Shown here: in pieces, positions 1 to 9,880 of the stretch
How positions within the stretch are numbered: the first letter of the stretch is position 1
Layout of the letters: each line of letters starts with the position of its first letter
Virus record (IMG/VR): IMGVR_UViG_3300049218_000083
Span: 5,861 to 69,860 of that record
Source: a virus
DNA: 64,000 nucleotides
Strand: one strand, 5' to 3'
Program-made: the position numbers and the translations under genes
Notes under the pieces: model-generated
The model's database searches: none
The model's input: the letters and a program-made list of their open reading frames with translations, nothing else
Told to the model about the DNA's origin: nothing

Positions 1-947
1 TCGTTGATCTTCTTCTGAAGCTCAACATTACCATTCATAGCTGTATTTAGCTTTTCGGTAAGTTCAGCGATTTCAGCAGACAAAGATTCAACGACGTTGA
101 CTTGCTCTTCTGGCAGGTCAATGTAGTGCTGTTCGAACAATGCCTTCAAACCACCAAGGAAGTCTTCTACCAACTCAGCCTTAAGGCCAGTCTCGATAGC
201 AAGCTTGTTTTCTTCCTTCCACTCAGCAACCATGCTGGTAAGGTAGTCATCGACTTGAGCTTCAAGCTCAGCTTCGATATCCGCAACTGACTCTTCAGCA
301 GCTTCAAGGATATCTTGTTCCATTTCTTCAACGACCATTACTGCACGAGCAATAACAGCGGTCTCGAAAATGGTTGTAAGCTTGGTACGGAACTCGTCAG
401 AGAATGTTTGGCCAGCAAGGATAGCATCGATGTCTTCCTTGCAAGACTTAGCCTTCATCTTCTCTTTCATCTTCATGACCTTTGCGTTCTTCGCTTCCTG
501 AATTTCTTCAGGAGTCAATTCAATTTCGGTCTCTTCTTGATGAATATGTGGATCCTTTGAAGCACCGTTGTCATCCTGGTTTGGACGAGCAAGTGCGCCA
601 TTGGTTGGCTTTGCGTAAGAACCAGCTTGAGTTCCGTTCAGGTCGTCTGGAGAGACCTTTGCAGAACCAAGAGAAGATCCCTCGGAACCTGGCTGCTCTG
701 GCAGCTTTTCCATTGGAGCTTCATCATTGTCAGGCTTTGCACCTGGCTTTTCAGCTTGCTTACGGTTCGCAGCGGTAATCTTTCCGACTGGAGTTGCTTG
801 TGGGTTGTCATACGTGACACCACCAAGATTCACAGCGCCATCAGAGGCTGGCTGAGAAGGCTCGTGGTGCATTGGTTCTGACGGTGCAGTTGCGCGAGAC
901 TTGTTAAGGACTTCTGCAGCAGCTTCGGCAAGGGTTTTGTGGGACAT
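1..947 (-). CDS. gp22: Prohead core scaffold protein, T4 gp22-like (3' end runs off the window)
   Basis: Not in the ORF track. Manual translation from ATG 947 (MSHKTLAEAAAEVL..., SD GGAG) gives acidic coiled-coil with FSDEFRTKLTTIFETAV...QVDDYL..MVAEWKEENKLAIETGLKAELVEDFLGGLKALFEQHYIDLPEE; follows gp21. Confidence 0.9.
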   Translation of the reverse strand, partial: MSHKTLAEAAAEVLNKSRATAPSEPMHHEPSQPASDGAVNLGGVTYDNPQATPVGKITAANRKQAEKPGAKPDNDEAPMEKLPEQPGSEGSSLGSAKVSPDDLNGTQAGSYAKPTNGALARPNQDDNGASKDPHIHQEETEIELTPEEIQEAKNAKVMKMKEKMKAKSCKEDIDAILAGQTFSDEFRTKLTTIFETAVIARAVMVVEEMEQDILEAAEESVADIEAELEAQVDDYLTSMVAEWKEENKLAIETGLKAELVEDFLGGLKALFEQHYIDLPEEQVNVVESLSAEIAELTEKLNTAMNGNVELQKKIN

Positions 948-999: not shown

Positions 1000-1641
1000 T
1001 TAGAGCTTGGAGAAGTAATTCTCCATGATCTTAAGTGCGACTTCTTCAAGCTGGGCCTGCTTAGCACCCTTGATTTCCTTGTACATCTCATTCACATCAG
1101 CTTCTACAATGATTCCATTGTTCCAAATCCATTCCCTACCTTCCATCATTCCATTGACGAAAGCATCCGGTGCAGACGGATCAGAAACGACATCACCTGC
1201 TGTAGCAAGGTGATAGTCATCCTGAACCATATTGACTCCGTTCTGTTCCTTCAGAGAGCCCATACCACGAGATGAAACACCGATGGCAACGTTATCGTCG
1301 ATCAGGTTCTTGACGATGTTACCGAATGGAGTTGAAAGCACTTTCGCGCGACCAATCCAGTTGTTACCGTCTTCCTTCAGAGAAAGGATCTTGTGTGACG
1401 CACGATCGTAATTGATGGTTGGTGAAGCTGGGTGACCAAGTTCACCGACTGCTCGGTTGGTGTTGATCATTTCCTTGACATAGCGATTGACTTCGCGCTC
1501 AAGGATAGCTTTCGGATAGACACGCCCATTACGATTCTTTAGTTCAGACTGCAAGAACACACCTTCGATGAAGTAGTTCTTACCTGTAGCAGTCTGCTCA
1601 ACAAGAGTCTTGGATTCTGTGTATTCTACAATCAGTTTCAT
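1000..1641 (-). CDS. gp21: Prohead protease, T4 gp21-like
   Basis: IEGVFLQ..KNRNGRVYP, GELGHP, GVSSRGMGSL, DVVSDPSAPDAFV motifs. Confidence 0.95.
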   Translation of the reverse strand: MKLIVEYTESKTLVEQTATGKNYFIEGVFLQSELKNRNGRVYPKAILEREVNRYVKEMINTNRAVGELGHPASPTINYDRASHKILSLKEDGNNWIGRAKVLSTPFGNIVKNLIDDNVAIGVSSRGMGSLKEQNGVNMVQDDYHLATAGDVVSDPSAPDAFVNGMMEGREWIWNNGIIVEADVNEMYKEIKGAKQAQLEEVALKIMENYFSKL

Positions 1642-1651
1642 TCTTTTCTCT

Positions 1652-2344
1652 TTACTTTATCGCGTATGAGCGATGCTTACCTGCTGGCCATTGCTTCATT
1701 TCGCTGGAGTGTTTAGCAACATGAGTTACAACACCACGCTCACCGCTCTTCATGCTTGGGTGAATACCATGACGCCATTGCGCATTGGATTGTCTGTGGT
1801 GAGTTCCTGGGAACTTGGTTGAACGGTTGCCGTCGTCATGAAGATGAACATGGTCACCTGGCTTCATGTCGTGACCACCAGCGATGACGGAAACGTGTTC
1901 TTTGTCACCATAGGTGCCGTCTTTTCTCTTGCCATAGGTGTGGTGGACAACGCGAGCATATCCAGAACCACCATGACTGTCCCAAGAAGCTGTGTGTTCA
2001 TGCTTCTCTGGTTTTTGTGTGTTAATCTTACCAGCACTAACCAATGGAAGATGGTGTGGGTAGTTTTGATCGTTTTCATTTATGATTGAAATAGATTCAA
2101 AAATTGCTGAATCGTCACCGTCTTCATCAACATTTGGGAAGAAGAATGATTCAGTTTTTGGCTCTTCTGGCTTGTCATGAACTTTGATTTCTGCCCAGTG
2201 GTGAGAACTCTTCTTAACACTGGCACCACCACGGAAATCTTTGACTTTCGCGCCAACAGCAAGTGGCTTGCCAGACTTTTCGTGAACAAGCTTGGTTCGA
2301 CCTTCGCGGTCAGACTCGTTCAAGTACTCTTTGAATACACCCAT
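1652..2344 (-). CDS. His-rich putative internal head protein
   Basis: N-terminus MGVFKEYLNE resembles T4 capsid-targeting sequence MKTYQEFIAE; lies between gp20 and gp21. Confidence 0.55.
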   Translation of the reverse strand: MGVFKEYLNESDREGRTKLVHEKSGKPLAVGAKVKDFRGGASVKKSSHHWAEIKVHDKPEEPKTESFFFPNVDEDGDDSAIFESISIINENDQNYPHHLPLVSAGKINTQKPEKHEHTASWDSHGGSGYARVVHHTYGKRKDGTYGDKEHVSVIAGGHDMKPGDHVHLHDDGNRSTKFPGTHHRQSNAQWRHGIHPSMKSGERGVVTHVAKHSSEMKQWPAGKHRSYAIK

Positions 2345-2345
2345 C

Positions 2346-2624
2346 TTACACCCCCATTGCGTGTCTACGACGCAAACTTCTTTTTCTCTTCAACAATGTT
2401 CGAGCCATCTTTGCTCGACGCTTGAACTTACCCTTTCGTGCTCCACGCTTTCTGTGAAGCTTTTCTTGTGCACTCATGCGCACCAGTCTTCCGCCACGTA
2501 TCGTGAAGCCTTTCACGTTACTGACTTTTACGTTGCGCTGTACCTTACCATTCTTGATCCTAAGACGAATCCTTTTGATACGACCAGCAGTTTTCTCACT
2601 AAGATACTGCTTGAAGGATTTCAT
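2346..2624 (-). CDS. gp68: Prohead core protein, gp68-like, highly basic
   Basis: MKSFKQYLSE start; Arg/Lys-rich end KRKRSLRRRHAMG like T4 gp68 RKRKKALKRRKALG; synteny. Confidence 0.7.
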   Translation of the reverse strand: MKSFKQYLSEKTAGRIKRIRLRIKNGKVQRNVKVSNVKGFTIRGGRLVRMSAQEKLHRKRGARKGKFKRRAKMARTLLKRKRSLRRRHAMGV

Positions 2625-2625
2625 T

Positions 2626-3114
2626 TTATGGATGGAATGTGTTATCGTTGTACTGGGTGTAGACGTTAGCGTATCCGCCGCCAGCGTCGCCTTCCTTGTT
2701 CAACTTAAGGATCAGCGTAAATCCGTCGCCTGGAATAGCACCTTGAATAGTAAGTCCAAGATCACCACCCAAACCGTGATTCAAATTCGCAGTGTTTGCT
2801 GCAAGTGGGTTTGGCATGTACGCTTCAAACACGCTTGAAGTTTTACCACCAACAACAGCCAAGTCACTGTTTCCGCCAGCGCCAGTTCCAACCCATTGAA
2901 GGAGTGCATAGCCATTGGCAAAACCAGCAGCATACTGAATAGAAATACAAGACAACACGCATGGCTTAGAGCTGTTTGCATAAGCGAGAGTGTTTGCCTG
3001 AATGATCTGAGTGTTACTGTTGGTTGCAGCCGTGTAATAGCCAACGATCTTAACAACAGTGCGATCGCCTGTATCGACCAAAATTTGTACTTCAGGGACG
3101 TTAGGTGTTGACAT
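2626..3114 (-). CDS. Hypothetical virion structural protein
   Basis: 162-aa low-charge beta-rich ORF tightly packed in the head operon. Confidence 0.55.
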   Translation of the reverse strand: MSTPNVPEVQILVDTGDRTVVKIVGYYTAATNSNTQIIQANTLAYANSSKPCVLSCISIQYAAGFANGYALLQWVGTGAGGNSDLAVVGGKTSSVFEAYMPNPLAANTANLNHGLGGDLGLTIQGAIPGDGFTLILKLNKEGDAGGGYANVYTQYNDNTFHP

Positions 3115-3123
3115 CGTATCCTC

Positions 3124-4293
3124 TTACTTCAAATGGGTCGACACAAATTTGGCGACCTTGCTCAATCCTGCTGGGCCACTGTTGATAAGAGACTCAATCT
3201 TCTTCTTATTCTGTGGATTTACCTTACTATGTAGCTTCATGATCATTGCTGCTGTAGGATGATCAACCATGCCTGAAGAGCCGTTCTTGTAACGCACCTG
3301 AGCTGGATGACGTGTTTTCGTAATTGCGTGCAGCGTGTGAATCGTTGCTTCATGTACAACATCTTCACCGAGCTCGGCAGCCGCATGCTTGTACTTGGCA
3401 TAATGATGGTTTGCGCGACCTTCGTCACCTTCGATGTGATGGCCGGCAGCTGACTTGAAATGATTTAGAGCTTTCTCACCATAACGCTGACGGACGACTT
3501 TTTCAATGTGACGATGTGGGCGGAATGATGGATCTTTCAGATTGCGCGGACTTTGTAGATGCTTGACGTACATACCGAATAGGTTGTCGGAAGTATCTTC
3601 ATTGACGCCAATCAGTGCCATGTAGTCTTCGTACACGTCATCGATGATGTCATCATTCCAGTCTGATACGTCGTCTCCATTCTCTTCTAGTTCAGAACCG
3701 AGCCAGTTGTAAAGAGCGATGTCCAATTCACCCTTGTTACCTTCGCCAACCAAACGCTTGTATGCCGCCTGTATAACGTCGATCTTGCGCTGACGGGGAA
3801 TATCGTCGAACCCTTCTGTAAGAGTGTCTAGGTTCTCACCGTGCTGCTTGATATGATGCTGAAGCGTCTTGACAGACAGCTGATGCTTGTTAGCAGCCTT
3901 GATGTGTGCAGCTAGATTGCGAGGGTATGCCTTTGGGTCCGCAGCAGTGATGTCAGCCTTTTGCTTCGTTTTGGTCATAGCTTTACGAGTCGTTTCGACA
4001 TCGCGTTCAAGGGTACGACGATCGGTGCGGATCTTCTTCAGTTCCGGACTCATTGCTTCATCAAGTGATTCTGTGAAATTGCCTACAGTGCTCAGCAAAC
4101 GCTTTCCTAATGTTTCTGGGTTGTATGGAATCGCAACCTCAAGATCAAGGTTGTCATTGCGATAGGTTGCGACACGCTGGTTGTTTGGAAACAGACGAAT
4201 CGCCTTTCTACGCATTGTAAGAACTGTAGGTGGATCCTGGAATGCAGGTGACTCCGTCAGTTCTCGAGTTCGTAGTTCTTTCAAAGTTTTCAT
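3124..4293 (-). CDS. Putative internal head polyprotein
   Basis: MKTLKELR..LTE start; repeated hydrophobic-X-E motifs (LTE, LDE, LTE, VNE, VHE) separating modules. Confidence 0.6.
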   Translation of the reverse strand: MKTLKELRTRELTESPAFQDPPTVLTMRRKAIRLFPNNQRVATYRNDNLDLEVAIPYNPETLGKRLLSTVGNFTESLDEAMSPELKKIRTDRRTLERDVETTRKAMTKTKQKADITAADPKAYPRNLAAHIKAANKHQLSVKTLQHHIKQHGENLDTLTEGFDDIPRQRKIDVIQAAYKRLVGEGNKGELDIALYNWLGSELEENGDDVSDWNDDIIDDVYEDYMALIGVNEDTSDNLFGMYVKHLQSPRNLKDPSFRPHRHIEKVVRQRYGEKALNHFKSAAGHHIEGDEGRANHHYAKYKHAAAELGEDVVHEATIHTLHAITKTRHPAQVRYKNGSSGMVDHPTAAMIMKLHSKVNPQNKKKIESLINSGPAGLSKVAKFVSTHLK

Positions 4294-5999
4294 TAGTATG
4301 CTGTGTCCAATGCCTTGGTGGTGTGTGGGTGACCCTTGACCGGACCACCCTCATCAGCCTCTTGTCCCATTTTGTGCAACTCAGCGTGCTTACCAGAGTG
4401 ACTCTTCACCAACTCTTTCTCAGCTTTGTGGTACAAAGCATGGTGCTTGGTGTTCTTGTGAAGGAAGTCAGCAGCATCGTGACGCTGTCCACCACTGTTA
4501 GCAGAAAAGGCTCCATGTAGGACTGAAGTCAAATGCGGGAACTTCTCAGCTGCTTCTGTGATAACTTCTTCCTTGGTCAGTCTGTCGGTTGCTTTTTCGA
4601 TACCGTTGATGCGCTTTACAGCTTTCTTCCAATGAGCGCGAGATGGTGTTCCACGTTCAAGGTTTTGACCAGCAGTATGTGCATGAGCTGCTGCGCCGTT
4701 CAAACCACCAGATGCCTTCTTGATGTAACGGCCAAGCAATCCCTTTGACAATTCATTGACTACAGCTTCATCCTGACGGTGGGACTTGTCCCAATGAGCT
4801 GCATCTGTGTGACGACTTTCGTCTTCTTCACGTTCCTTCTTTTCTTTTGCCAAGCGAGCAACCAATGCTGCGTGGATTCCCCTTGATACAGTTTGACCAG
4901 CACGGAAATACGCACGAGAACCAGCGCGGAATGTTCCACGACGTGCTTCGTCAAGCTCTGTTTCCTCACCAACGTGACCGAAGTTTTGAGCGAAGGTTGC
5001 CATCTTAGCAGCATGACCACCAGCAGCCTTTCCCTTTGCTATGTCAGCAGCGGTAATCGGTGCGTTTGGGTCCTTGTGTAGCCACGCATGGAACGCACCT
5101 TTCTTCACATGAATCGTTGATTCTTCAACCTGTGGAAGAACAGATTCATCACGACGTTGGTTTTTCTCTTTGTCTTTTCGCTTCTGGTTGAAACGTTCAG
5201 CACGCTTGTCCTTGAAGGTTTTCTTGATAGAAGCAGTTTCGTGGTTTGGGTTGTTGCCTGATTCGTTCATTGTATCTTCCTTAATGGAGTGAATAGCACC
5301 CTTACTAAGTGTCGTGTTAAAACTCCCACGACTGTGCTTTCCATATGGCTTCTCACCCTTCACGTGAGCAACGTGGTGATCTTTGAATATGGTGTCATTG
5401 TGAACAGCATATCCATGTCGCGCCGCATCAGCTTTCCAAGCATCTAGATCAGTATGCTTCTTTGTGTGGTGAAGGATTTCGTCAGATGGATCTTCGACAC
5501 CCTCTTTCACAGCATGAACACCTTCACGGTTGGCCCACTGCTTAGCATGAGAATGCGCTTCTTCTTTATCGTCAGTATGATAGTCAGCCTTCTCTTGATG
5601 GACGCCATCTACGAAGTGCTTTACACGGTGTTCTTCCCATTCCTTATCACGGTACACTTTCGCAGTGCGGTTGCCGTTGGTGTGGGTAGCTGTAAGCTTC
5701 AATGCTTCGTCAAGTGTTTCTTCCTTGACGTTGTGGTTTTTCACATGCTGATGATCTTCATAACTAAAGCGATGGTGTTCACCAGTTTTATGATCACGAA
5801 TAACGTAATGATCATTGGCAACGTGGTGAAGATGACCTTCCTTCTTATCACCATGTTCTGGGTGATAGTAGTCCATGGTGCTTACCGCAAATCCGCGTGC
5901 CTTGTCTTTCTTGTTCGCAGCATGGATTCGATGAATCGTTCCCGTATCGAACCCGATATGCTTTGTCGCAAGATCGCGATATGAAGCTTCAGTCAACAT
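4293..5999 (-). CDS. His/Lys-rich putative internal head polyprotein
   Basis: 568 aa; about eight hydrophobic-X-E linkers separate basic His-rich modules. Confidence 0.6.
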   Translation of the reverse strand: MLTEASYRDLATKHIGFDTGTIHRIHAANKKDKARGFAVSTMDYYHPEHGDKKEGHLHHVANDHYVIRDHKTGEHHRFSYEDHQHVKNHNVKEETLDEALKLTATHTNGNRTAKVYRDKEWEEHRVKHFVDGVHQEKADYHTDDKEEAHSHAKQWANREGVHAVKEGVEDPSDEILHHTKKHTDLDAWKADAARHGYAVHNDTIFKDHHVAHVKGEKPYGKHSRGSFNTTLSKGAIHSIKEDTMNESGNNPNHETASIKKTFKDKRAERFNQKRKDKEKNQRRDESVLPQVEESTIHVKKGAFHAWLHKDPNAPITAADIAKGKAAGGHAAKMATFAQNFGHVGEETELDEARRGTFRAGSRAYFRAGQTVSRGIHAALVARLAKEKKEREEDESRHTDAAHWDKSHRQDEAVVNELSKGLLGRYIKKASGGLNGAAAHAHTAGQNLERGTPSRAHWKKAVKRINGIEKATDRLTKEEVITEAAEKFPHLTSVLHGAFSANSGGQRHDAADFLHKNTKHHALYHKAEKELVKSHSGKHAELHKMGQEADEGGPVKGHPHTTKALDTAY

Positions 6000-6017
6000 G
6001 GAGAAGACTCCTGGAAA

Positions 6018-6530
6018 TTAAGACATCTTCCCAAGGTGCTTCACGTCAACACCCTTGCTACCGTGGTGGACTGCAAACTTGTGCATTCCGCCAGATCCAG
6101 CAACATAGTAGTGCATTTCATGCTTGTCAGCATCAATGCCACCATGGTCCTTGCTGATATGGTAATGTGGAGTGTGGAACTGCTGGAAAGTACCACGAGT
6201 GCTTACTGGCTCATGTTGGCCGGTTGCAGCAGCGTGAACAGCGTGTGCCATATGCTCAACAGAGCCTGGAGTGATGACCTTTTCGTCAACGACTTCAGTG
6301 TCTTCTACGACCTTCTTTCCTGGCATCGTTGGCTTACCCTTGATCTTTGGTCTCCAAGAGATATGAGGAAGCTTTGGGTCATGAATACCACCAGCCTCGT
6401 TGATAAGAGTTGAAGCGACTTCGATCTTGGTCTCAGCAAGGATAGCATCTACCTTTGCTTCGACAGCTTCGTTGAACTTCTGCTTGAAGCCGATAGCATC
6501 TTTGTTTTGAGCGGATTGTACTAGTGACAT
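6018..6530 (-). CDS. gp67: Prohead core protein gp67-like with His-rich C-terminal extension
   Basis: First ~45 aa (LVQSAQNKDAIGFKQKFNEAVEAKVDAILAETKIEVASTLINE) match the gp67 pattern; immediately after gp20. Confidence 0.65.
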   Translation of the reverse strand: MSLVQSAQNKDAIGFKQKFNEAVEAKVDAILAETKIEVASTLINEAGGIHDPKLPHISWRPKIKGKPTMPGKKVVEDTEVVDEKVITPGSVEHMAHAVHAAATGQHEPVSTRGTFQQFHTPHYHISKDHGGIDADKHEMHYYVAGSGGMHKFAVHHGSKGVDVKHLGKMS

Positions 6531-6583: not shown

Positions 6584-8218
6584 TTAGACAAGCTGATTCA
6601 TTACTCGCTTGTTGAGCTCGCCAGCCTGATCCGTTGGTTGTTGCTCACCTGGCTTGACTGGACCTGGAGGAGGTGGTGGACCTGGAGGAGCAGCAGAACC
6701 AGCCAATGGGCCAGCTTCCTTCTCAATGTCCTTCGCTTCCTTCTTCATTTGCTTCTCTTCCTTGGCGATTTCAGCTTCGTCCATCATCAGGATGTTTTCC
6801 TTGACCCAACGCTCGCTGTAGAAACGACCAATGAAAGGCTCGACCAATGTCAGCGTGTTCATGCGGTTCGTAATCAACTCGGCTTCCTTCAACTCGGTGA
6901 AGTTGTTGTCCTTCACGAAGCGATAGGTGACATCCTGACGCATCTCAGCCCATTCATCGAGGGTACAGATGCCTTTCAATGTCAACTGACGCTGAAGCAA
7001 TTCATCGAACAGCATTGAGAAGCGATTACGAAGTTTCTGAACGAATTTGTCGAACTTGATTTCGTCACGAGTGATTTCAGCTGGACGACCAAGGTTGAAA
7101 CCAGAATTTGTTTCAAGACGTGAAATAGGAACGCACAATGCGCGGTAAAGCTTCTTCTCGAAGTACAATACGGCATCCATGTTGTCAAATCCCTGACCTG
7201 ATGGCAGCGTGGTAATTTCGGTTGACTTGTCTGGGGTTGAACGAGGCATCCAGAAGTCTTCAAGCATAGAGAAATGTTTTCTGTCGTCTCGAATTTCACC
7301 AGTTCCAGCATCATATACAAGCTTGTTGCGGTACTTGGTCATAATGTCTTTCAAGTACTGTTCAGCCTTTGCTTTTGGCAAACCACCAGTACCGACGTAA
7401 AATACACGACGCTCAGGAGCGCGAGAAACCTTGTAGATGACAGTTGCGTCTTCGATGAAGCGCAGCTGGTTCATTGGACGGATAGCTTTGTGCAGATAAC
7501 TCAACACGGTTGACTTGGCTGGGTCGAACAGTCCTGAAGTCAAGTGAATCACGGAGTCTTGAGACAGTTTCACACCACCAGCAAAGTTGCCGATGATCTG
7601 TGGTGACTGAATGCTGTTGTTTACGATCTTCTCATTGTAGAGATAGAACACTTCGATTTTTGTGATTACATCAATTCCATCAGAATTCTTCTGCTTTGTG
7701 ATGTTACGGATTTTGCGAATACGACGTGGATCAATGAACGTCAGCTGTTGGATACCGTCGCGTGGATTTTCAGGATCGATGACAACGTTCCAGTATGCAC
7801 GACCGTCGACATACCAACGACGGAAAATATCAGGACCATATTTGTTGAAGTCAAGAAGCTTGAGAACGTTCTTGAACTCGTCACGAATCATTGTCTTGAT
7901 TTCATCTTCCTGATCAAGGTCATCGAGGTTGATTTCAACGCTCTTGCCATGATCGTCGTGGACGATAGCTTCGTTGATGATGTCATCGATAGCGTTTTCC
8001 ATTTCTGGTTGCATCGCCATCGTGCGATACTTTGATAGGAGGTCGACTTCGGAACGGTATGTGCCATCAAGGTCAACGTACACCCCATAATGGGCTCCTG
8101 AATTGATGTTTATAGCACCATCTTCAAGACTTGGTGATACTACACTTTCCGGAACTTCCTTCTCAGTGTCTTGGCGTTTTATTTCGAACCCGAAGAGCTT
8201 AATAGAATTTTGTGCCAT
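6584..8218 (-). CDS. gp20: Portal vertex protein, T4 gp20-like
   Basis: IFRRWYVDGR, SYLHKAI.P.NQLR..EDA.VIY..SRAPERRVFY, MLEDFW.PR, EITRDE.KF motifs. Confidence 0.97.
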   Translation of the reverse strand: MAQNSIKLFGFEIKRQDTEKEVPESVVSPSLEDGAININSGAHYGVYVDLDGTYRSEVDLLSKYRTMAMQPEMENAIDDIINEAIVHDDHGKSVEINLDDLDQEDEIKTMIRDEFKNVLKLLDFNKYGPDIFRRWYVDGRAYWNVVIDPENPRDGIQQLTFIDPRRIRKIRNITKQKNSDGIDVITKIEVFYLYNEKIVNNSIQSPQIIGNFAGGVKLSQDSVIHLTSGLFDPAKSTVLSYLHKAIRPMNQLRFIEDATVIYKVSRAPERRVFYVGTGGLPKAKAEQYLKDIMTKYRNKLVYDAGTGEIRDDRKHFSMLEDFWMPRSTPDKSTEITTLPSGQGFDNMDAVLYFEKKLYRALCVPISRLETNSGFNLGRPAEITRDEIKFDKFVQKLRNRFSMLFDELLQRQLTLKGICTLDEWAEMRQDVTYRFVKDNNFTELKEAELITNRMNTLTLVEPFIGRFYSERWVKENILMMDEAEIAKEEKQMKKEAKDIEKEAGPLAGSAAPPGPPPPPGPVKPGEQQPTDQAGELNKRVMNQLV

Positions 8219-8739
8219 TACAATCTACTCCACCCATCAGTGCCAAGTAGGCTACGGATTCGGCTATATGTTTTATCGACCAAATTTCTGCCTCTCTTGT
8301 TTGCTCTTACTGGAATCTTACCAGCCAAAGCTTCGGCAGCTTCACTTACGGAACCAAATGTTCCATACGGAGTATTTATTGCGCAAGCATTGTTGTTGAT
8401 TCCACCTGTCTGGTTGACGTGTGGACGCTTGCCGCGCATTGCTTGTTTGTGTGCTTCAGTTTTCGGCTTGGACAGCTTAGCAATCGTCTCAAGAGTATGT
8501 TTCATACCCAAGCGATATTTGTGTCCTTTGTTTGCTTTGGATACAGCGATCCTTGCTGCCTCTTCATGAGTGATCAACCCAGCGAGTCCTTTCCAGGCAA
8601 TTTCATCCTGCCACATACCATGTTGCTCAAACAAAACACGATGAGCTTCAGCGTGCTGTTCTACCGTTAAATCGACGATATTAGATGGGTCATTTGACCC
8701 ACCCATATGCTTCGGAATTACATGGTGTTTATGCATCAC
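8218..8739 (-). CDS. Free-standing HNH homing endonuclease with NUMOD3-like motifs
   Basis: HKHHVIPKHMGGSNDPSNIVDLTVEQHAEAH HNH core; GMKHTLETIAKLS NUMOD3-like; inserted between gp19 and gp20. Confidence 0.85.
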   Translation of the reverse strand: MMHKHHVIPKHMGGSNDPSNIVDLTVEQHAEAHRVLFEQHGMWQDEIAWKGLAGLITHEEAARIAVSKANKGHKYRLGMKHTLETIAKLSKPKTEAHKQAMRGKRPHVNQTGGINNNACAINTPYGTFGSVSEAAEALAGKIPVRANKRGRNLVDKTYSRIRSLLGTDGWSRL

Positions 8740-9445: not shown

Positions 9446-9880
9446 TTAGGCTTTAGCCTTTTCCATCCAGATACGCTTTCCGGTAATTGGATCTTTCTTC
9501 CAAGTTTTACCAACTGACGACATCTCTGGATGTTGTTTATAGAATTCTCTCATCACATTACCATGGCCCAGTCGACCATTCTTAGCGAAATGATGATTCT
9601 CTCTGATATTTAGCTTTGCTTCTTTCGTGTGTCTGTAGTCGCGAATCTTAGCATTATGCTCTTCTGTATGCCTTCTGCCCAAGTGCCATTGTCTATTTGC
9701 TTCAATAGACTCTGGCGAATGCTTTCTTCCATACCAATAGGAGTCTTGTCCGCTAGGAACAGGAGGTCCTGGTAGTCTTGTTACACCTTCCGGCAATACA
9801 ATCCTACCACTTACACGCTCATCACAAATTACAATGGGTGTCAGTTCAACACCCATTACTTTCGCTATGGCTTCATTCAT
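9446..9880 (-). CDS. NUMOD3-repeat protein, homing endonuclease derivative with no visible catalytic domain
   Basis: YGRKHSPESIE, LGRRHTEEHNAKI, RHTKEAK repeats; between gp18 and gp19. Confidence 0.7.
   Translation of the reverse strand: MNEAIAKVMGVELTPIVICDERVSGRIVLPEGVTRLPGPPVPSGQDSYWYGRKHSPESIEANRQWHLGRRHTEEHNAKIRDYRHTKEAKLNIRENHHFAKNGRLGHGNVMREFYKQHPEMSSVGKTWKKDPITGKRIWMEKAKA

Follow-up and report, generated by a model that had tools for sequence, protein, structure and literature searches.

A candidate cargo-polyprotein interval between the portal and prohead protease genes of an uncultured T4-like phage

The internal proteins of phage T4 are the textbook case of pre-made effectors that are injected together with the phage DNA. 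They form a diverse and fast-changing anti-restriction set, in which Ip1-3 inhibit GmrSD-type restriction (PMC3012670, PMC9026906, PMC12373910), and the blocking of restriction enzymes has by now been established for all three (PMC12373910). T4 IPII and IPIII carry a 10-residue leader ending in Glu, in which head targeting depends on positions 4 and 7 and processing on positions 8 and 10; a change of the P1 Glu to Asp prevents processing in T4 (PMC9026906). These proteins served as our reference for a 64,000-nucleotide (nt) stretch of DNA (positions 5,861 to 69,860 of IMGVR_UViG_3300049218_000083; hereafter the window), which is part of the 166.7-kb IMG/VR virus record of an uncultured, T4-like phage. 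At positions 1652-6530 the window holds six tightly packed minus-strand genes, with a portal gene on one side and the gene of an S77 prohead protease on the other. The corresponding slot in T4, between genes 20 and 21, holds genes 67 and 68 only (667 bp). From their sequences, the genes of this interval probably encode cargo polyproteins that are targeted to the head core and cut by the prohead protease into roughly 15-20 pieces. An earlier note on this DNA had contrasted about 4.9 kb of genes at this place with only gp67/gp68 in T4. We confirmed this as six open reading frames (ORFs), two of which, of 162 amino acids (aa) and 92 aa (the latter with 38% Lys+Arg), had gone undescribed in that note.

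Modules and joints of the 568-aa and 389-aa ORFs

The 568-aa ORF (4293-5999, minus strand) is the candidate polyprotein and consists of a 4-residue leader followed by about eight modules, with proposed joints after residues 98, 166, 246, 293, 351, 416 and 482. In total 759 library proteins of 64 to 1188 aa matched it in an exhaustive HMMER search (E <= 1e-3). These are metagenomic proteins, and each of them covers single modules of the 568-aa ORF at varying positions. The coverage by homologues along the ORF was found to have steep edges near residues 91-98, 160-170, 291, 350, 401-411 and 481-491. The edges coincide with the proposed joints, and the module borders are thus visible independently of the joint motif. 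An AlphaFold model built on a 33-row alignment had a predicted template modelling score (pTM) of 0.30 and showed separate confident domains, with a predicted local distance difference test (pLDDT) value below 50 around the joints at 93/98, 166, 246, 293 and 345/351. No [LIV]-x-E site was located within the confidently folded modules B, E and H.

Module B (residues 99-166; 5502-5705, minus strand) is a three-strand plus helix domain that corresponds to phrog_7884, with a pLDDT of 97-98 over residues 100-160 and 96 copies in the local set. Module E (residues 294-351; 4947-5120, minus strand) is a small helical domain with a pLDDT of 93-96 over residues 300-345. Both are compact folds with fixed His and Asp positions. 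Module G (residues 417-482; 4554-4751, minus strand) is a helical repeat unit that was detected in 218 copies in 79 proteins, with up to 8 repeats in other proteins. Module H (residues 483-568; 4296-4553, minus strand) contains 14% His and also has stand-alone forms (P0015, P0073). In P0015 a 10-residue T4-like leader lies shortly upstream of module H, and the 568-aa ORF has a joint at the same module start. A [LIVMT]-x-E sequence ends close to the start of the module, at most a few residues away, in 82 of 95 copies of module B, 23 of 25 copies of module E and 211 of 213 copies of module G.

The 389-aa ORF (3124-4293, minus strand) has a different build. It contains the N-domain (about residues 20-62) and the C-domain (316-389) of a lineage-wide conserved 150-aa protein, and alignment with 13 relatives placed about 230 aa of extra modules in the linker between the two domains. 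A hydrophobic-x-Glu triplet is present within about 3 residues of the C-domain start in all 14 aligned rows, as [LIV]xE in most of them and with Ala or Gly first in a few. Its AlphaFold model has sites 14, 79 and 160 within linkers of low confidence. The ORF starts with a longer, 14-residue variant of the leader. The 568-aa and 389-aa ORFs are mosaics of modules that are exchanged at the joints. That modules might shuffle among related phages had been raised before, and it was borne out: even at 81% portal identity the modules of another phage are in a different order, and the polyprotein of that phage has a full leader. One sister polyprotein of 768 aa carries about nine near-identical joints.

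All the junction motifs that the earlier note had listed for the 568-aa, 389-aa, gp67-like and 230-aa ORFs were found at their places, and its claim of a protease-motif pattern stood in part. The raw [LIV]-x-E count was discarded as evidence, as the protease, portal and scaffold hold as many or more such sites, and the plain motif is not enriched. When acidic context was required, 5 sites were counted in the 568-aa ORF, where about 1.5 would be expected. The extended joint [DE][DE][TV][LIVM]xE, a pattern taken from sister phages and library matches, occurs 4 times in the whole 49,389-aa proteome (shuffle P < 5e-5), three times in the 568-aa ORF and once in the 389-aa ORF, with none in the other ORFs, and it is this longer acidic joint that is specific to the two mosaics.

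The DNA of four joints of the 568-aa ORF is also alike, of the type AAGGAAGA..AC..T.GA.GAAGCA, and this likeness could act as microhomology for module exchange.

The modules had also been described as basic and rich in both His and Lys, of which the His richness was upheld and the basic character was not. Among 223 ORFs the 568-aa ORF ranked first in His, the 230-aa ORF third and the gp67-like ORF fourth, with 9.4-10.2% His in the three ORFs compared to a genome median of 2.3%. The modules mostly contain 5-16% His with a Lys/Arg charge near zero. The net charge (Lys+Arg minus Asp+Glu) ranges from -2 to +7 across the modules of the 568-aa ORF and is -13 in one module of the 389-aa ORF. The charge of most modules therefore gives no support to the DNA-coating role that had been suggested, the only strongly basic product being the 92-aa protein.

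Leaders, genomic context and growth of the interval

A regular expression for the T4 leader, applied to the N termini of 253 ORFs, returned the 92-aa and 230-aa ORFs and one false positive. Both ORFs agree with the T4 leader at positions 4, 7, 8 and 10. Among the library matches, 22 of 149 begin with a T4-like leader, and in several matches the leader abuts a module that is internal to the 568-aa ORF. The capsid protein of the phage retains the T4 gp23 maturation site F-L-T-E, indicating that the protease probably has the predicted T4-like hydrophobic-x-Glu specificity. The proposal that the joints are interchangeable with N-terminal leader ends, and behave like T4-type leader and protease sites, is supported by these comparisons, and the earlier note's interpretation as a whole is upheld in part.

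We retrieved viral loci for modules B (57 loci) and E (43 loci) and scored them for T4-type protease and portal markers. The module B joint was present in 10 of 12 loci with these markers compared to 5 of 45 without (Fisher 3.7e-6; 2.9e-4 dereplicated), and the module E joint in 14 of 19 compared to 7 of 24 (Fisher 0.006; 0.017 dereplicated), P values that are indicative because the loci are related to each other and diverged proteases (jumbo-phage contigs) may be missed. In loci with a T4-type protease or portal, the module-bearing ORF is nearly always located between portal and protease. In loci without T4 markers, module B was found either as a leaderless ORF of 65-76 aa or embedded with a different junction. 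In the T7-like Pseudomonas phage Achelous (L084, 1286-1489) it is encoded as a 67-aa protein without a leader at the left (early) end, adjoining an acetyltransferase gene and upstream of the RNA polymerase. The occurrence of module B as an early leaderless gene in T7-like Pseudomonas phages lends indirect support to an immediate-early role.

Module B was also observed in contigs with an SU10-type portal (L089, 5613-11626; L094, L096, L101, L106, L120), where it is part of Gly/Lys-rich proteins of 250-820 aa encoded a few kb downstream of the portal, and where its junction ends in K-P and not in Glu. This arrangement may be a second, unrelated way of carrying module B in the virion. The context of P0068 yielded one related locus, from an SU10-portal phage, whose copy is without module B.

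Next to the joints, the size of the interval itself was compared in 52 related loci. The portal-to-protease distance rises with portal identity to this phage: it is about 0.5 kb at about 50% identity, 1.0-1.2 kb at about 60%, 1.7-3.5 kb at 65-73% and 5.0 kb in the closest complete relative, at 77%. The gene order is conserved, with the gp67-like gene followed by the variable His-rich ORF(s), the 150-aa family, the 162-aa family, the basic 92-aa family and the protease. Optional extra ORFs with a leader fall between the 92-aa family and the protease. In sister phages the gp67-like N-domain is fused directly to His-rich modules with 12-15% His. Locus scans for close relatives, done with the 568-aa ORF and with P0012, gave no confirmed locus.

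Fusions of gp67-like N-domains to tails with 12-15% His and His/Lys-rich runs were observed in L018 (2475-3791), L017 (11061-12107) and L007 (3489-4661). A cluster of four Cys (C-P-E-C ... C-M-C) in these tails suggests metal binding.

Remaining genes of the interval and its flanks

The gp67-like ORF (6018-6530, minus strand) encodes 170 aa with net charge 0, and is predicted to consist of a gp67-like prohead-core N-domain (residues 1-45) and two extra modules, the last of which (84-170) has 16% His. Residues 3-44 matched phrog_1064, annotated as 'prohead', with an E value of 1.7e-3, and the paralogue in L018 did so with 1e-6. The ORF aligns position for position with T4 gp67, at a BLASTP E value of 1.0 that is not significant, and its gene directly follows the portal gene, as gp67 does in T4. 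The gp67 hallmark of about 80 aa with a strongly acidic tail was not found in it. Its C-terminal module follows a leader or a joint in L013, L010 and L005. The 568-aa ORF lies in the reading frame of the gp67-like ORF, from which one TAA and six codons separate it (5999-6020). The pair could represent a former fusion, read-through or re-initiation, with a one in three chance of two ORFs being in frame. In relatives, either the gp67-like domain and cargo are fused or the polyprotein carries a full leader.

The 162-aa ORF (2626-3114, minus strand) was found in 16 related loci and is without a leader, and is neither basic nor His-rich. It had no Pfam, PHROG, PDB-sequence or cultured-phage match, and tblastn of the 389-aa and 162-aa ORFs against cultured phages gave no match for either. 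The 92-aa ORF (2346-2624, minus strand) consists of a 10-residue T4-type leader and an 82-residue body with a net charge of +32. Its family is present in 21 related loci, mostly directly upstream of the protease. Judging from this composition, the 92-aa protein is the likeliest DNA-binding internal protein of the interval. An assignment of this ORF as gp68 was rejected, since the basic tail of T4 gp68 shows no significant likeness to it (BLASTP). The 230-aa ORF (1652-2344, minus strand) is an orphan with a 10-residue T4-type leader and a His-rich body, with 14% His in residues 91-230. The earlier note saw the same pattern here as in the larger ORFs, and the leader and the body agree with this; with no detectable homologues the claim is weak for this ORF.

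The portal protein (gp20 type; 6584-8218, minus strand) forms the upstream boundary of the interval (Pfam Portal_T4 4e-161, phrog_213 8e-186) and shares about 50% identity with its counterparts in Kyanoviridae-type phages and in Stenotrophomonas phage DLP_6. On the other side, the S77 prohead protease (gp21 type, 213 aa; 1000-1641, minus strand) is the presumed processing enzyme (Pfam Peptidase_S77 2.4e-38, phrog_207 8e-76), and scores 132 bits for PF03420 against a Pfam gathering cut-off of 27. The scaffold (gp22 type; 3-947, minus strand; Pfam T4_CASP 3e-42) is cut by the window edge, and its full ORF of 407 aa is present in the record. Between portal and protease the genes are separated by 1-53 nt or overlap, and the 568-aa ORF is preceded by a good ribosome-binding site. 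The T4 late promoter TATAAATA was looked for across the window and was absent, so that the late timing of the interval genes is drawn from operon context only. Two HNH-type endonuclease-like ORFs lie amid the structural genes, between portal and tail tube (8218-8739) and between tube and sheath (9446-9880), and in the relative L010 such an ORF is located between the portal and the gp67-like gene.

Searches for known families and folds returned few matches. No ORF of the interval had a Pfam match above threshold, and among ten of the strongest library matches only P0003 passed, with DUF5661, a domain of unknown function. Foldseek found nothing in the PDB at E <= 1e-3, and profile comparison with PDB sequences gave nothing credible for module B or for the 162-aa and 389-aa families. 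In BFVD module B matched Pseudomonas and Pectobacterium phage proteins of 60-70 aa with template modelling (TM) scores of 0.8-0.95. For module B the best VIA matches were MmoD (Z 7.5) and AP2 (Z 7.4), and those of the 389-aa model stayed at Z <= 5.3; all of these are leads only. Structure matches in the Atlas were to unnamed viral clusters only.

Readings of the interval and comparison with known systems

Based on these results we propose that the interval acts as a cargo bay. Its products would be made late, alongside the head genes. They would enter the core by one of two routes, the gp67-like core domain or, for the 92-, 230- and 389-aa ORFs, an N-terminal capsid-targeting leader of T4 type. 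The S77 prohead protease would then cut after Glu in the hydrophobic-x-Glu joints, and about 15-20 small folded or His-rich pieces would remain in the head with the DNA and be delivered with it into the cell. The earlier count of 15-20 products is arithmetically sound if every joint is used. The cargo would most likely act at the very start of infection. We regard this cargo-polyprotein reading as probable.

Several observations weigh against it. Plain [LIV]-x-E sites are not enriched above chance, with 11 in the 213 aa of the protease and 14 in the scaffold fragment. When 10 such sites were compared with the AlphaFold models, 5 of 10 were strictly within segments of pLDDT < 50, which is not significant. 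The earlier note had asked whether the chains fold as single domains across the linkers: separate domains were predicted, and yet joints 416 and 482 of the 568-aa ORF lie in long predicted helices of low to medium confidence, and site 315 of the 389-aa ORF also lies within a predicted helix. The joint of module G is part of the repeat, so that its conservation alone would fit a structural feature as well as a cut site. The leader of the 568-aa ORF has just 4 residues before the first Glu site and does not account for targeting to the head. The homologue search with the 230-aa ORF found only the ORF itself, apart from a 21-residue match in L009, and neither DNA similarity to cultured phages nor a cultured relative was found. 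In T4, core proteins that hold many such cut sites are degraded to fragments that mostly leave the head (PMC9026906) and are not retained. The relatedness of the loci behind the context comparison belongs here as well.

A wider form of the cargo-polyprotein reading can be offered tentatively, as a possibility that we hold to be less likely than not to be correct in full. By this general plug-in rule of T4-type phages, any small early-acting protein whose gene would otherwise have to be transcribed first could become a ready-made injected protein once it follows a leader or protease joint between portal and protease, with modules moving between the early genes of T7-like phages, the head proteins of SU10-portal phages and T4-type polyproteins. 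The His-richness of this lineage could add a pH- or metal-switched hold on the DNA.

Among the alternatives, the one that survives best is that the His-rich pieces serve capsid physics and are not anti-defence effectors. As pH- or metal-switchable counter-ions, they would condense the DNA and release it in the neutral cytoplasm. The His content and near-zero Lys/Arg charge of most modules fit such a role, as do the His/Lys-rich low-complexity runs and high His content in the sister phages and the contact of T4 internal proteins with DNA phosphates (PMC3012670). However, modules B and E are compact folded domains and not low-complexity polycations, and other phages use them outside capsids. We consider this explanation unlikely, although it is compatible with the cargo-polyprotein reading.

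It is rather less likely that the ORFs encode accessory prohead-core or scaffold proteins, which would be degraded and expelled before DNA packaging, like T4 gp22, gp67 and gp68, with nothing delivered to the cell. The genes take the place of genes 67 and 68, one of them has the gp67-like N-domain, the scaffold itself holds 14 [LIV]-x-E sites, and most core fragments of T4 exit the head (PMC9026906). However, the [LIV]-x-E sites are at module borders, with none inside the folded modules B, E and H, and the modules also occur as free-standing small genes in unrelated phages, in one case in the early region, for which a disposable scaffold would have no need.

We give slightly less weight again to packaged or head-associated multidomain proteins that stay uncut, in which the acidic joints would be flexible linkers and possibly recombination-friendly boundaries. 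The alike DNA of the joints, the location of some joints in predicted helices and the position of the module G joint within a repeat are in line with this. Yet the presence of the joint follows that of a T4-type protease or portal and not the module itself, and the joint is interchangeable with a leader end, which is cleaved in T4 (PMC9026906). That the products are late cytoplasmic proteins outside the particle is very improbable: the 162-aa and 568-aa ORFs are without a full leader, but the genes are embedded and translationally coupled in the head-core block, the leaders match those of T4, and module B also occurs in the head-gene blocks of SU10-portal phages.

If the cargo-polyprotein reading is true, the injected arsenal of uncultured T4-like phages is much larger and changes faster than one would expect from the model phage. 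The joint motif would then be a simple rule for spotting such cargo in metagenomes, and a leader combined with joints could serve to package more than one protein at a time in capsids of T4 type. The connection of a putatively packaged module with a T7-like early gene gives a means of selecting small proteins that are active within minutes of the start of an infection, with the module B homologue of Achelous as a tractable entry point for function.

A full-text literature search that combined targeting sequence with polyprotein returned no description of this design, and the systems closest to it each share a part of it. Like in giant phages phiKZ, 201phi2-1 and SPN3US, whose inner-body or ejection proteins are head-internal, cleaved after Glu by a gp21 homologue and delivered, the products of the interval would be matured in the head (PMC5694885, PMC7411985, PMC10052503). 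The giant-phage proteins mainly undergo propeptide removal and form paralogue families, with no strings of small exchangeable modules described (PMC5694885, PMC7411985, PMC10052503), and no sequence relation to the ORFs of the interval was seen. Polyvalent proteins (Iyer et al. 2017; PMC5512222) resemble the candidate polyprotein in having many unrelated, conflict-related domains in one chain that is thought to travel with the DNA and be cut. They differ in having recognisable enzymatic domains and an embedded metallopeptidase (PMC5512222), whereas the ORFs of the interval are without a Pfam domain and would be cut in trans by the head protease. Neither a conflict-related enzymatic or DNA-mimic Pfam domain nor an embedded peptidase was found in them, and the S77 protease, a separate protein, is the sole peptidase close by.

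With T4 gp67 and gp68 the interval shares the slot and a gp67-like N-domain. The short acidic tail of gp67 is replaced here by His-rich modules. The 92-aa protein resembles gp68 in being encoded directly before the protease in most relatives and in having a basic tail, at a likeness that is not significant. The T4 internal proteins remain the nearest comparison. Here too, a 10-residue leader is present (in the 92-aa and 230-aa ORFs) that has Glu at position 10 and is hydrophobic at positions 4, 7 and 8, an S77 protease is encoded alongside, and a constant leader precedes cargo that is diverse and evolves fast. The T4 proteins are single and encoded elsewhere, whereas in this phage a single ORF strings together several unrelated modules behind one leader or core domain, leader-like joints separate the modules, the genes are located between portal and protease, and the products are His-rich and have no family match to described internal proteins. 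As read from the sequence, what is new compared to the T4 internal-protein system is the chaining of modules, the putative leader-like joints, the exchange at these joints, the portal-protease location and the His-rich predicted cargo.

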